A DNA stretch of 64,000 bases from Methanocaldococcus sp. 16A (GTDB lineage Archaea; AGJL01; Methanococci; Methanococcales; Methanocaldococcaceae), in the NCBI GenBank assembly GCA_049860595.1, contig CP187551.1; one strand, 5' to 3'. Shown in pieces: positions 7,088-35,820 of the stretch (position 1 is the first letter of the stretch; each line of letters begins with the position of its first letter). The translations under genes and the position numbers were made by a program. The notes below the pieces were generated by a model. It was not told the DNA's origin. It did not search any database and worked only from the letters and a program-made list of their open reading frames with translations.

Positions 7088-8227
7088 ATGAAAAAGATAT
7101 ATGCAGTGATGGCTTTATTAATTTCATCCATAGTTCTATTTGCTGGATGTGTCCAAAACCAGCAAACATCAGAAGTTCCTACATTGACAGTAGCTTATTT
7201 ACCATCAGACCACCATGCAGCGTTATTTGTAGCCTGTGACAACCCAGATTTGTTTAAAAACAATTATGGTATTTATTTAAAAGCAGTTAAAGATAAAGAA
7301 GAGTATGAATTATACAAAGGAGATAATAAAATTGCTAATGTAAAAATAGTTAAAGTTACTGAGGGAGGAGCAAGTATAATGAACCTAATGACTCAGGGAC
7401 AGGTTGATGTTGCTTTAGTAGGAAACCCACCAGTAATTTTCTACATTGATAAAGGAACAAATGCTAAGATTATAATGAACTTACATACAGAAGGTTCAGC
7501 AGTAGTTGTTAGAAAAGACATTCCAGTAAATAACTGGGAGGACTTTGTAAATTGGATAAAAGAGCAACATAAAAAAGGATATCAAGTAAAAATAGGGCAT
7601 CCACTTCCTACATCAATCCAATATGTTATGATTAAAGATGCTTTAAAAGCTGAAGGAATTACTTACACTGAAGACCCTAATAATAAAAGTGCAATGGTTT
7701 TATTAATGAACTGTAAAGGACAAAAAACAATGCCTCAAATGTTAGCTCAAAAGCAGTTGGATGCAGTTATAGCATGGGAACCTACACCAGAGATTATAAA
7801 AAGCAAAGGCATTGGAAAAGTTATTGCTTATAGTGAAGATTTACCAAGTACTTCAGGTGGAAAATGGACAGACCATCCATGCTGTTGCTTAGCTGCATCA
7901 GAAGATGCTTTAAATAATAAAAGAGAAGCAGTAATTACATTTGCAAAACTTCTTAAATATTCAACAGATGAAATTAACAAAGATAAAGATTTAGCTGTTA
8001 AAGCATCAGTTAGATGGCTTGGAACAGATGAAGCTGTTGAAAAGGATTCAATTGCACATATAAAGTTTGATTATAGATTAGAGCCAATAATCCCACAAGT
8101 AATAAAATTCGTTGAAGCTATGAAACTTCAAGGATTAATAAGTGGTAAGTTGAAAGATGTTTCATCAGAAGATGCTAAGAACTTGATATTTGACTTACAA
8201 ACATATAATGAAATAATAAGAAATTAA
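7088..8227 (+). CDS. NitT/TauT-type ABC transporter substrate-binding lipoprotein
   Basis: Lipobox LFAGC; AWEP and HPCC motifs of SsuA/NrtA-like binding proteins. Confidence 0.8.
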
Positions 8228-17869: not shown

Positions 17870-19843
17870 ATGTCCCCAAGAATTGGGGTATTTGTCTGTT
17901 ACTGTGGAGCAAACATTAATGGTGTTGTAGATTGTGAAGCAGTAAGAGATTTTGCTGAAAAATTAGATGGAGTCGTTGTGGCTAAGACCTATCCTTTTAT
18001 GTGTGCTGACCCAGGGCAAAACTTGATTAAAGAGGCAATAAAAGAATACAACCTCGACAGAGTCGTTGTTGCTGCATGCACACCAAAAATTCACGAACCT
18101 ACTTTTAGAAACTGTATAAAAGAAGCAGGATTATCTCCATATTATTTGGAGTTTATTAACATTAGAGAACACTGTTCGTTCGTTCACATGAATGAAAGAG
18201 AAAAGGCTACTAAAAAAGCAATGGAGTTAGTTGCTGGTGGAGTTGAGAGAGCTAAGAGATTGGAAGATGTTCCACAAAAAATTGTAGATGTTGATAAATC
18301 CTGTTTAATTATTGGAGGAGGTATTGCTGGAATTCAGGCGGCTCTTGACTTAGGAGACCAAGGTTATAAGGTATATTTAGTAGAAAAAGAGCCATCAATT
18401 GGAGGAAGGATGGCTCAACTTGCTAAGACATTCCCAACTGATGACTGTGCGCTGTGAATTTTGGCCCCAAAGATGGTTAGCGTTGCAAACCACCCCAATG
18501 TTGAGCTCATAACCTACGCCGAAGTTAAAAATGTTGAAGGATACATTGGAAACTTTGAAGTTACAATTGAGAAGAAACCAAGATATGTTGATGAAAATGT
18601 CTGTACTGGATGTGGGGCTTGTGCAGCTGTTTGTCCAATTGAAGTACCAAACGAGTTTGATTTAGGTTTAGGTACAAGAAAAGCTATATATGTCCCATTC
18701 GCACAGGCAGTTCCATTAGTTTATACAATTGATATGGACCACTGTATAAGATGTGGTTTGTGTGAAAAAGCTTGTGGTCCTGGAGCTATAAGATACGACC
18801 AAAAACCTGAAGAAATCAAATTGAAGGTTGGAACAATTATCTGTGCAGTAGGTTATGATGAATTTGACTGCACACTAAAAGAAGAGTATGGTTATGGTGT
18901 CTATGACAACGTCATAACTACATTAGAATTAGAGAGAATGATTAACCCAGCAGGACCAACAGGAGGGCATGAAATAAGACCAAGTGACGGAAAGCATCCA
19001 CACAGAGTTGTATTTATCCAGTGTGTTGGTTCAAGAGATGCTAAAGTTGGAAAGCATTACTGTTCAAGAATCTGCTGTATGTTCGCATTAAAGAATGCCC
19101 AATTACTTAAGCAGCATGACCCAAGCACTGAAGTTTATATCTGCTACATGGATATTAGGGCATTTGGTAAAGGATATGAAGAGTATTACAGAAGAGCTCA
19201 AGAGCAGTTTGGAGTTAAGTTTATTAGAGGAAGACCAGCTTGTATAATGGAAGACCCAGAGACAAAGAACTTAATCGTTAGAGTAGAAGATACATTATTA
19301 GGAGAAATTGTAGAGATTGAGGCAGATTTAGTTGTATTGTCAGCTGGTTTATCTCCAAGACCTGACAATCCAAAATTAGCTAAGATGCTTGGTTTAGAAT
19401 TAAGTCCTGATGGGTTCTTCAAAGAACTGCATCCAAAGTTAGCTCCTGTTAATACAAAAGTTGATGGTATAGCAATTGCTGGAGTAGCTCAGGGACCTAA
19501 AGATATTCCAGATACAGTAGCTCAAGCTAAAGGGGCAGCGAGTGCTGTTTCAATACCAATGGCTCAGGGGCAGTTTAAGATAGAGATGATTAGAGCTGTT
19601 GTTGATGAAGAGGTCTGTGGAGGCTGTAAGGTCTGTGCTAAGATGTGTCCATATAACGCTATAACATATGTGGAAAAAGATGGACACTTAGTAGCTCAAG
19701 TCAATGACGTTGCATGTAAGGGATGCGGTTCATGTGCAGGAGCATGTCCAAGTGGAGCAATGCAGTTGAGATACTATAGAGATGAGCAAATAATTTCATT
19801 CATTGATGGAGTGTTAGAAGCTCACCAAAAGTTAGAAGGATAA
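17870..19843 (+). CDS. hdrA: Heterodisulfide reductase subunit A, selenoprotein (Sec196; UGA 18455-18457)
   Basis: Two ORF-track pieces are in one frame, joined by TGA in [15 protein letters not shown] (a conserved Cys site); GGTGA SD before ATG 17870; downstream SECIS. Confidence 0.96.
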
Positions 19844-19960
19844 AAACTTTAAGATAATGCACAAGCCCCACATCCAAATATTGAAAAGTTCTTGGAAACA
19901 TTATCTAACATTTACTAATATATGGCGTAGGTTATGAGCTCAACATTGGAAAAAGATAAA

Positions 19961-20007
19961 CCAGATGAGGCACCGCCCGAAGGCATTTGCCAGGGTGGTG
20001 CTGATGG
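19961..20007 (+). promoter_or_regulatory. SECIS element of hdrA (19970-20001) on a K-turn base
   Basis: GCACCGCCC-GAA-GGC-ATTT-GCC-A-GGGTGGTGC; archaeal GAA/A consensus. Confidence 0.9.
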
Positions 20008-20097
20008 GGGGTAAGTACCCTTAACTTATTATAAATTTGATTCTCATATACTCATCAAATTGTTTAAATCAAAATTAATAACTTTGAGGGGTTAGTT

Positions 20098-20502
20098 ATG
20101 GAGCCTGTAATAATTGCTTTCTGTTGCTATCAATGAGGTTATGGGGCTGCTGACTTAGCAGGGACAAGTAGAATGCAATACCCTGCAACCGTAAGAATCG
20201 TCAGGCTCCCTTGCACCGGTAAATTTGACGTTACCTATGCTTTAAGAGCTTTCCAAAAGGGAGCCGACGGAGTTATGGTTGTAGGGTGAAAGAAAGGAGA
20301 GTGTGCTTACGAAACAGGTAACACAAGAGCTGAGGAGAGGGTTAGGTTCGTTAAAGAATTATTGGATGAATTAGGAATCGGCGGAGACAGAATTGAAATG
20401 TACTTCATGACAGCTGCTGAGGCTGACAAATTTGTCTCCGCCGTTAACGAAATGACTGAAAAACTCCAAAAACTCGGACCTAACCCTCTCAAAGCTCAAT
20501 AA
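20098..20502 (+). CDS. vhuD: F420-non-reducing hydrogenase subunit D, two Sec (UGA 20134-20136, 20287-20289); absent from ORF track
   Basis: Manual translation MEPVIIAFCCYQ-U-GYGAADLAG...RLPCTGK...VVG-U-KKGECAY, 134 aa, TAA stop; GAGGGG SD. Confidence 0.95.
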
Positions 20503-20523
20503 AGCCGGAGATTAAAGGGATGA

Positions 20524-20557
20524 GTTCTCTCGGGAACCCGTCAGGGACCGAGAGAAC
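20524..20557 (+). promoter_or_regulatory. SECIS element of vhuD
   Basis: GTTCTCTCGG-GAA-CCC-GTCA-GGG-A-CCGAGAGAAC. Confidence 0.92.
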
Positions 20558-20626
20558 AACCGCCCCTATGTGAGGGGTTCTCCGGCTTTTGTAAAATTTA
20601 ATTTAAACTTTCTTAGGGTGATTACC

Positions 20627-22873: not shown

Positions 22874-23026
22874 ATGGCTGAAAAAAGCACAGTCAAAGTT
22901 GATGAGGTAAAGTTAAATTTAATTGAGGTAGTTTTGAGGGCTTACGACCCTTGATACTCATGTGCTGCCCATATAATAGTTAAAGATGAGAAAGGAAATA
23001 AAATTATAGAGATTATTAAAGAATAA
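22874..23026 (+). CDS. vhuU: Selenopeptide VhuU (Sec27; UGA 22952-22954), 50 aa; absent from ORF track
   Basis: [37 protein letters not shown]..., L2 motif plus cleavable C-terminal tail; GGTGA SD. Confidence 0.95.
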
Positions 23027-23060
23027 GCTCACAACCGAACCCATTTGGGAGGTTGTGAGC
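23027..23060 (+). promoter_or_regulatory. SECIS element of vhuU
   Basis: GCTCACAACC-GAA-CCC-ATTT-GGG-A-GGTTGTGAGC directly after the stop codon. Confidence 0.92.
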
Positions 23061-23138
23061 TCTTTCCCCTTACGCAAGGGGAATTCGCTAAAATCCTTTT
23101 ATGGATTTTAGCGCAAAATTTTTAGGAGGATGGGATTG

Positions 23139-25749: not shown

Positions 25750-25785
25750 ATGTTGGAGGGGAACCCGTAAGGGACCCTCCAACAT
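25750..25785 (+). promoter_or_regulatory. SECIS element of fwdB
   Basis: ATGTTGGAGGG-GAA-CCC-GTAA-GGG-A-CCCTCCAACAT. Confidence 0.93.
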
Positions 25786-35375: not shown

Positions 35376-35729
35376 TTACTGTTTCAAAGCATTTACTTTT
35401 TCAATTAATGCCTTCAACTCTTCAGCATCTCCTTCGTTGATAATTGCAACTGATGATGCTGCAACTTCTAATCCAGCAGCTTTACCTAAATCTTGTTTTG
35501 AAGCTACGTAAGCGTAAGGGATCCCTTTTTCTTCACATAAGTATGGAAGGTGAGCAACAACTTCTTCTGGTTTAACATCTTCAGCAATGATAACTAATTT
35601 TGCTAATCCTCTCTCAACTGCCTTTGTAACTTCGTTAGCTCCTTTCTTGATTTTTTGTGCTTTTGCAACTGCATCTAATAACTCTTTTTGAATTTCTTCT
35701 GGAACTTTAAATTTTACATAAACTGCCAT
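35376..35729 (-). CDS. rpl7ae: Ribosomal protein L7Ae (K-turn binding)
   Basis: [25 protein letters not shown]; ATG 35729 after GGAGG. Confidence 0.97.
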
Positions 35730-35759: not shown

Positions 35760-35820
35760 TGGGCAATCCGGAGGGAATTGCCCACTCTTACAGGGCTTTT
35801 GCCCTGTAGTATCATCGTGG
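35760..35820 (-). promoter_or_regulatory. L7Ae 5'-UTR K-turn leader with overlapping second hairpin
   Basis: CCAC-GAU-GA...UACAGGGC-AAAA-GCCCUGUA-A-GA-GUGG; BRE/TATA near 35855-35870. Confidence 0.8.

Follow-up and report, generated by a model that had tools for sequence, protein, structure and literature searches.

The stretch of DNA analysed here, referred to as the window, comprises 64,000 nt of contig CP187551.1 from Methanocaldococcus sp. 16A; coordinates are positions in the window and features lie on the plus strand unless marked otherwise. Within it, a selenocysteine (Sec)-type hdrA gene for heterodisulfide reductase subunit A (17870..19843) is followed by the FlpD-family gene vhuD (20098..20502), and the spacer between both genes harbors an RNA element at 19961..20007 in which a kink-turn (K-turn) lies directly under a selenocysteine insertion sequence (SECIS). 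hdrA was delimited by open reading frames (ORFs), a read-through translation and matches to the Pfam domains Fer4 and Pyr_redox_2, with an ATG start at 17870 inferred from the translation, an in-frame TGA at 18455-18457 and the stop codon at 19841-19843. The translation of vhuD matches PF02662 (E = 3.9e-50) and contains two Sec codons, both in-frame TGA, at 20134-36 and 20287-89. The element starts 118 nt past the hdrA stop codon and ~1.5 kb past the in-frame UGA of hdrA, and the vhuD start is located 91 nt downstream of it. Comparison with related genomes revealed that the K-turn is a separable module and not part of what defines an archaeal SECIS.

An earlier note on this DNA had described a K-turn at 19961-20007, and both the sequence and RNAfold predictions agree with the anatomy that it proposed. 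The canonical (C) helix is formed by CCA (19961..19963) and UGG (20005..20007) and is followed on the 5' side by the 3-nt bulge GAU (L1-L3; 19964..19966). G1b A2b (19967..19968) and G2n A1n (20003..20004) provide the tandem, presumably sheared G.A/A.G pairs, and the non-canonical (NC) helix begins with a G.U pair (19969/20002); C helix, bulge, tandem pairs, NC helix and strand polarity follow the rules for standard K-turns position by position. At the same time, the NC stem is the 10-bp helix 1 (19969-78 with 19993-20002) of a canonical euryarchaeal SECIS (19969..20002), which was detected in a pattern scan, is supported by covariation and obtained 38.2 bits with our SECIS model R1, the training alignment of which included this sequence. 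Above helix 1, an internal loop with GAA (19979-81) opposite A (19992) leads to the 3-bp helix 2 GGC/GCC (19982-84 with 19989-91) and the 4-nt loop AUUU (19985-88), as expected for a euryarchaeal GAA_A SECIS with its basal helix of ~10 bp, GAA opposite A, 2-3 G-C pairs above and apical loop of 3-8 nt. The placement is also that of a euryarchaeal SECIS, in the untranslated region behind a gene whose reading frame holds a UGA at a conserved Cys/Sec position (context TDDCAL-U-ILAPK). For a segment of 81 nt, RNAfold recovered the SECIS hairpin together with the 3-bp outer helix at -33.4 kcal/mol (z = -4.15), and none of 200 shuffled sequences folded as well. On sequence grounds, it can be considered secure that the element is the 3'-untranslated region (3'-UTR) SECIS of Sec-type hdrA and that its basal helix is simultaneously the NC stem of a standard K-turn.

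The whole element is a full-length member of the Rfam family RF01737, the flpD RNA. With cmscan, 19961..20007 matched model positions 1-47 of 47 with 56.5 bits (E = 4.3e-11; gathering score 40 bits), which was the only match in the genome, and the element occupies the place typical of this RNA, just upstream of a gene of the FlpD family (methyl-viologen-reducing hydrogenase delta subunit). The RF01737 consensus already includes CAGAUGA and CUGAUG. The family had been listed as a possible cis-regulatory RNA of flpD in Euryarchaeota (Weinberg et al. 2010, Genome Biol 11:R31), whereas we read it as the hdrA SECIS on a K-turn. In the main text and four supplementary files of Weinberg et al. (2010), flpD occurs only in a table and an alignment, and kink, SECIS and selenocysteine are absent. 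A full-text literature search for flpD and SECIS gave co-occurrences only where flpD is the name of a gene. In the searched literature, our reading of RF01737 appears not to be in print; it would explain an Rfam family of unknown function.

The presence of a K-turn under the hdrA SECIS and its evolutionary reading are already known, from the Rfam family and from the published motif. Mariotti et al. (2016; PMC4989117) described AUGA together with GAC/AAC on vhuD SECIS elements, credited AUGA to vhuD only, with the other SECIS elements of those genomes lacking AUGA, and suggested that Lokiarchaeal and eukaryotic SECIS elements have their prototype in that of vhuD. In 2024, an ISME J article (PMC11227280) reported [A/G]UGA_[G/A]A for every hdrA and frhD SECIS detected in Methanococcales and Methanopyrus; it stated that GA_GA is typical of kink-turns and that the motif is the likely archetype of the eukaryotic core. 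According to the literature, K-turns are also found on Methanopyrus frhA and selD and on every Asgard and eukaryotic SECIS. The element of the window is the same element with the same motif, which both articles link to the eukaryotic K-turn core. In view of both articles, the earlier note is outdated in restricting the described archaeal consensus to GAA/A, and its suggestion of an evolutionary intermediate is a reasonable reading, but not a new one, having been put forward for vhuD in 2016 and later for hdrA and frhD. The composite of a euryarchaeal GAA_A SECIS and a K-turn that it had postulated was borne out and is conserved. As in eukaryotic and Lokiarchaeal SECIS elements, an AUGA_GA core is found at the foot of the main helix ([A/G]UGA in 25/25 of the homologues described below), and all these elements reside in 3'-UTRs and act at a distance. 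In contrast, eukaryotic and Lokiarchaeal elements possess an A-rich apical loop at a fixed distance where the hdrA element has GAA_A, a 3-bp helix and the loop AUUU. The proteins that bind the eukaryotic core are L30 and SBP2, the latter with its L7Ae domain, and no SBP2 is known in archaea according to this literature. The available text of Mariotti et al. (2016) and of PMC11227280 mentions neither a 3-nt bulge with a covarying C helix nor SECIS-less hdrA genes, K-turn-only hairpins or K-turn-less SECIS elements, some of which the supplements may hold. Peiter et al. (2025), in the portion available, do not mention hdrA and use "kink-turn-like" for GAA_A. What is new here is that K-turn and SECIS are separable and that the K-turn was kept after loss of the SECIS in related genomes.

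The comparison sample consisted of 40 Methanococcales genomes (G000 is the genome under study, other G numbers denote related genomes and L numbers individual loci). A search with the C-terminal part of HdrA detected Sec-type hdrA in 36 of them, and the four genomes without a match are only 54-89% complete. At E <= 0.001, flpD matches were obtained in 25 of the 40 genomes, one in each and all after hdrA, 19 of which scored above the gathering threshold. A phylum-wide RF01737 search covered the same 40 genomes and added nothing, and Methanopyrus was judged from the published flpD seed alignment and the literature only. The 25 elements from 25 genomes were aligned, and pairs were counted over 24 distinct rows. 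Both GA dinucleotides are invariant (25/25), and so are the U before the first GA (L3; U12-G13-A14) and U-G-A-U on the 3' side, the first U of which is 3n. The bulge is GAU in 18 elements, AAU in 3, UAU in 2 and UGU or GGU in 1 each. The C helix covaries: the outer pair is CG in 8, AU in 4, UA in 4 and UG in 2 rows and is unpaired in 6, the middle pair is CG in 19, AU in 3 and GU in 1 and unpaired in 1, and the inner pair is AU in 23 and GU in 1. In the Methanopyrus row of the published seed alignment, the C helix reads CCG/CGG. The SECIS helices covary as well (7/9 pairs of helix 1 and 2/3 of helix 2). For the whole structure, 93.0% of the cells were paired, in comparison to 29-41% when the 3' partners were slid by 1-3 columns, and the covariation score was matched in 0/500 shuffles, a figure that does not translate into a probability since the sequences are related. 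At 30% G+C, two GA, a 3-nt spacer and three complementary bases would be expected by chance in ~2e-4 per hairpin. A genome scan for the K-turn signature on a G+C-rich stem yielded 14 matches versus 3-13 in 10 shuffles, with the hdrA site as the best, and did not point to a larger collection of such hairpins on the chromosome. As judged from these alignments, conservation is the decisive evidence that the K-turn signature exceeds chance. Generic K-turn hairpin scans (1018 matches versus 623-676 in shuffled sequence, and 283 versus 187-240) were discarded because a genome of 30% G+C gives too much noise. A short ORF running from the AUG in GAUGA through the SECIS was rejected, as differences in loop length shift its frame between genomes.

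The hdrA-vhuD spacers of the 36 genomes with Sec-type hdrA differ in their content. K-turn and SECIS are both present in 24 of them. In G014, the closest relative of the genome under study, an intact K-turn accompanies a decayed SECIS (UAA for GAA and a weak helix 2). A K-turn hairpin only is found in six genomes (G003, G004, G008, G009, G015 and G016), a SECIS only in two (G028 and G035) and neither in three (G021-G023). For the 11 genomes with hdrA and without flpD match, the spacers were read and the whole loci, from ~1 kb upstream of hdrA to beyond vhuD, were searched with R1 with filters off; absence of a SECIS refers to these loci. The whole-genome R1 search had missed the vhuD SECIS of G003, which the locus search recovered, and weak R1 matches inside the hdrA coding sequence of L078 and L079 (15.4 bits, E = 0.019) were disregarded. 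All 12 atypical genomes, with G014 counted among them, keep the TGA at the Sec position of HdrA. Nine genomes have no hdrA SECIS, and their loci contain a single SECIS, that following vhuD; their hdrA must then be recoded from this vhuD SECIS, ~2 kb from the UGA, or in a non-canonical way. A SECIS shared by hdrA and vhuD has been shown in Asgard archaea and was merely guessed for Methanococcales (PMC11227280).

The K-turn-only hairpins consist of UUA-GAU-GA, a stem of 5-7 bp with a loop of 5-6 nt, and GA-U(G/A)A, and they lack GAA_A. Their C helices show compensating differences (UUA/UGA, UUUA/UAAA, AAAGUUA/UAACUUU), and their stems can be mirrored (GGGC/GCCC versus GCCC/GGGC). In G008 and G016 the stem corresponds to the basal part of the SECIS helix and is closed by GAAAA, which looks like a deletion of the upper part. 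In the HdrA tree, the six genomes occupy three places, (G004,(G003,G009)) with support 99/96, G015, and (G008,G016) with 100/100. Within the genus, all 15 genomes with data possess the K-turn, and 8/15 an intact hdrA SECIS. As a separate observation, the two genomes G028 and G035 (L078 and L079; also L035 and L036) contain ~100 nt of extra G+C-rich sequence after the hdrA SECIS; this stretch, which other genomes do not have, could form three hairpins by eye.

In a rival explanation, the K-turn would be integral to the SECIS, and L7Ae, or L30e in an SBP2/L30-like role, would bind it and be needed for efficient recoding of the hdrA UGA over ~1.5 kb. We regard this explanation as rather improbable. 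In its favor, K-turns recur specifically under SECIS helices, in 25 genomes for hdrA and in 36/36 for vhuD, the motif extends to the Methanopyrus, Asgard and eukaryotic elements named above, and no SECIS-binding factor is known in archaea (Peiter et al. 2025). In the window, the vhuD SECIS (20524-20557), identified by the pattern scan and the 36-genome comparison, rests on a K-turn-like base (20517..20561) whose 5' strand reads GG / GAU / GA and whose 3' strand reads AA / CC, with A in place of the second G. All 36 Sec-type-hdrA genomes share xAU-GA on the 5' side of this SECIS, while its 3' side is GA in 24 and AA in 12, followed by a 2-bp helix GG/CC or AG/CU. Within the genus, canonical GA occurs on the vhuD SECIS in 4/6 K-turn-only genomes versus 0/9 of those keeping the hdrA SECIS; a link to a Sec role is only suggestive, because the genomes are related and the counts are not independent. 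However, the vhuD SECIS carries its motif although it acts at only 237-390 nt from its two UGAs. The earlier note had connected the K-turn with the longest-range recoding event, a connection that is weakened by this short-range case and by the spacer states: in two genomes the hdrA SECIS lies at an unchanged distance but without K-turn, six keep the K-turn after SECIS loss, and three have neither. The latter, G021-G023, must recode hdrA from the vhuD SECIS over ~2 kb or more without a spacer K-turn. Their vhuD SECIS (L064, L065 and L077) has AAA for GAA and a 2-bp upper helix and, being the only SECIS found in the hdrA-vhuD locus, would therefore serve three UGA codons; AAA/A was reported to work, but more weakly (Peiter et al. 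2025). In addition, a Lokiarchaeal SECIS, which is of the K-turn type, was not functional in Methanococcus maripaludis (Peiter et al. 2025). Of the seven canonical SECIS elements that a pattern scan found in the genome, all of them also top-scored by R1, only that of hdrA has the full K-turn signature, and five have no K-turn flanks, among them those after vhuU (23026..23061) and after the Sec-type formylmethanofuran dehydrogenase subunit B gene (25750..25785), both found by the pattern scan and R1.

Loci of the cysteine (Cys) type provide a further comparison. The flanks of the Cys-type paralogue vhcD contained neither K-turn nor SECIS in 5/5 genomes examined, which is in line with a K-turn tied to the SECIS, but this comparison is imperfect, as vhcD is not preceded by hdrA, and fair for the vhcD-vhcG spacer only. 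Outside the window, the genome encodes a second hdrA without in-frame stop (G000:C1:234757-236112, minus strand; 63% identical over 452 residues), which is followed by a formylmethanofuran dehydrogenase B-like gene; no K-turn hairpin was found downstream of Cys-type hdrA, before the formylmethanofuran dehydrogenase B-like gene. Sec-type hdrA is the only copy in 12/36 genomes. Downstream of the Cys-type hdrA of G025 (L044, ~140-205 of the oriented locus), a box C/D small RNA (sRNA)-like sequence with GUGAUGA, CUGA, UGAUGA and CUGA was observed.

The persistence of K-turn-only hairpins in six genomes, in three of which the hairpin lies just 22-30 nt before the vhuD start, would also suit an element unrelated to Sec, that is, an operon-internal element which sets the hdrA:vhu ratio through 3' ends or processing, mRNA stability or vhuD translation and into whose stem a SECIS has been inserted. 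L7Ae is known to regulate translation via leader K-turns. In M. maripaludis, MMP1697-MMP1691 (hdrA, vhuD, vhuG, vhuA, vhuB, fwdB) are given as one operon (PMC10450193 supplement), with an internal termination site after hdrA at 1636858 on the minus strand (PMC10450193 Dataset S2), for which an efficacy of 0.52 and the class aCPSF1-dependent are listed. The hdrA:vhuD RNA ratio amounted to 2.10 in the wild type, a 2.1-fold drop, and to 1.59 in an aCPSF1-depleted strain (PMC10450193). The 36-nt sequence printed for this site is the hdrA element itself, and conversion with the flpD seed coordinates (1636889-1636843) places the published 3' end at position 32 of 47, where the unpaired A faces GAA. 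Immediately downstream of the K-turn, a second small hairpin (20008..20021) was predicted by RNAfold and, on 17/25 homologues, by RNAalifold, with changes on both sides in all six pairs. It has a 4-6-bp stem and often the loop UAUGU or UAAGU (homologous places in L006-L021), is missing from four genus-g2 elements and from the K-turn-only spacers, and could mark or protect the end of the hdrA transcript. Among four RNA runs of relatives, one showed a contig break just past this second hairpin and resumption 43 nt before vhuD, which is at most a weak hint at a transcript end because contigs cannot show ends; two runs contain single contigs that span hdrA, the element and vhuD, which speaks against such an operon-internal element, and coverage of the fourth was too small. 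Such an element would leave unexplained why the vhuD SECIS has the motif in 36/36 genomes and the vhcD-vhcG spacer of the Cys operon has none, and why the motif occurs on further Methanopyrus and Asgard SECIS elements (PMC11227280). Moreover, no further hairpin of this kind is conspicuous on the chromosome. Altogether, we consider an operon element without any relation to Sec unlikely.

Published rules relate the folding of K-turns to determinant positions (Ashraf 2017, PMC5689011; Huang 2019, PMC6298567). Ion-induced folding is determined mainly by G at -1n, is blocked by a Watson-Crick 3b:3n pair, and is permitted by G at 3n or C at 3b. Bacterial ribosomal K-turns have C:G at -1b:-1n in 94% and A:U in 0.2% of the cases. 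Archaeal box C/D K-turns, which need protein to fold, show 11.5% A:U at this position, mostly U:U at 3b:3n and G:C at 4b:4n, and a GAU bulge is present in all six published L7Ae-leader K-turns. In the hdrA element, -1b:-1n is A:U in 23/24 rows, 3n is U in 25/25 elements, 3b:3n is G.U in 14, U.U in 5, C.U in 4 and A:U in 1, and 4b:4n is G:C in 20/24. Because these positions resemble those of box C/D and L7Ae-leader K-turns, protein-dependent folding is predicted: most hdrA K-turns, that of the window included, should fold only on protein binding, and for the C.U versions (3b = C) ion-induced folding would be favored. With the same archaeal K-turns, the hdrA element shares GAU bulge, tandem G.A/A.G pairs, a -1b:-1n pair other than C:G, U at 3n and G:C at 4b:4n. 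In contrast to them, its NC stem is a long stable SECIS hairpin, it resides in a 3'-UTR and intercistronic spacer, it has no guide region, and the ribosome-binding site lies outside the stem-loop.

These statistics, together with 5' GAUGA in 18/25 and 3' CUGA in 21/25 homologues, could also be accommodated by a box C/D-type ribonucleoprotein (RNP) site for L7Ae, Nop5 and fibrillarin, or by a processed small RNA that uses these two boxes. Box C/D sRNAs, however, have internal C'/D' boxes and guides of 10-12 nt, whereas the hdrA element lacks both C'/D' boxes and a single-stranded guide; its two boxes are separated by 34 nt that form the fully paired SECIS hairpin, and no Rfam C/D family matches the site. 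This alternative is extremely implausible.

Recruitment of L7Ae by the hdrA K-turn is plausible from the determinant positions. Two PF01248 genes are present in the genome, which we take to encode L7Ae and L30e, and there is no extra PF01248 paralogue in the genome that could be a dedicated SBP2 analogue. One of them, an L7Ae-family gene and candidate for the K-turn binder by its PF01248 domain match, is located in the window at 35415..35687 on the minus strand, and the second lies outside. Upstream of the L7Ae-family gene, 40-90 nt ahead of its start, lies a hairpin with CCAC / GAU / GA ... A-GA / GUGG (~35770-35815, minus strand), behind which comes a terminator-like hairpin with a U run; the former was rejected as a standard K-turn, having unpaired bases directly after GA, and may be related to the L7Ae self-regulation known from other archaea.

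For the hdrA element, we favor the following scenario. The K-turn would stay unkinked until a protein of the L7Ae family binds, and with the bound protein a small RNP would arise where hdrA and vhuD meet in the hdrA-vhu operon. In this RNP, the SECIS hairpin would be clamped and presented together with the 3' end of the hdrA message; the RNP would assist selenoprotein mRNAs, without being needed for recognition of GAA_A. The listing of the M. maripaludis genes as one operon, the internal 3' end within the element and the 2.10-fold higher RNA level of hdrA relative to vhuD (PMC10450193) would suit such a role at the junction. That the element is a separable, L7Ae-class-dependent K-turn which forms such an assisting RNP seems to us about as probable as its contrary. 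Several points weigh against it, besides the imperfect vhcD comparison. The K-turn is dispensable in nature, with two genomes having the hdrA SECIS only and three having neither element, and a minimal fruA SECIS without K-turn was functional in M. maripaludis in vivo, the basal SECIS stem being described as not conserved (Peiter et al. 2025). The well-supported branches of the HdrA tree are compatible with a single origin of the K-turn-only state. Finally, the 3' end published for M. maripaludis is inside the SECIS and not after the K-turn; because there is no U-tract, it may be a processing or cleavage product or a library artefact.

A bolder version would assign the K-turn hairpin a working part in archaeal Sec decoding, able to act apart from GAA_A. 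In the six K-turn-only genomes, an L7Ae-family protein (L7Ae/L30e as SBP2 analogue) would then cooperate with the K-turn-bearing vhuD SECIS and recode the hdrA UGA ~2 kb upstream. We hold this to be decidedly unlikely.

Further features of the locus and the genome complete the picture. Past vhuD, the operon continues with vhuG, vhuA, a 54-residue vhuU-like ORF, a polyferredoxin gene and the Sec-type formylmethanofuran dehydrogenase B gene. In the hdrA 3'-UTR, a conserved sequence of the AACAUUAGGGUGGUU type (~19935-19955) was noted, which also occurs in L002-L025, ~20-45 nt upstream of the K-turn, and in L035 and L036. It is AACAUUGGGGG in most of the genus and the degenerate AACAUUGGAAAAA in the window, and it is retained even in the two genomes whose SECIS is without K-turn. 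This conserved upstream motif (GGGUGGUU type) might pair over a long range with the conserved CCGCC/CUGCC flank after the vhuD SECIS, an idea that was dropped, the motif being degenerate in the genome of the window. The second-best match of the scan for G+C-rich stems was a hairpin at 7230-7290 (plus strand) of G000 contig C2 (L087, ~931-991), with CAA / GAU / GA, an 8-bp stem, U-GA / UUG and a C helix extended by CCACCC/GGGUGG. It lies on a 27-kb extrachromosomal contig in a stretch without long ORF, is followed by more G+C-rich structure, and may be a plasmid-borne K-turn RNA.

These observations bear on the question of how a distant SECIS instructs the archaeal ribosome to read UGA as selenocysteine. 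With two SECIS elements resting on a conserved K-turn of the protein-dependent type, L7Ae and L30e become candidate SECIS-binding factors that can be tested cheaply, and the K-turn also ties the methanogen system to the eukaryotic core bound by SBP2 and L30. The natural variants with K-turn only, with SECIS only or with neither, all of them with the hdrA UGA kept, are ready test material for an M. maripaludis reporter, and they imply that hdrA depends on the vhuD SECIS in at least 9/36 genomes. Should the K-turn hairpin indeed be a working part of Sec decoding, Methanococcales would already possess a two-part, eukaryote-like system of K-turn protein and SECIS, and a shared hdrA-vhuD SECIS of the Asgard type would also exist in cultured methanogens.

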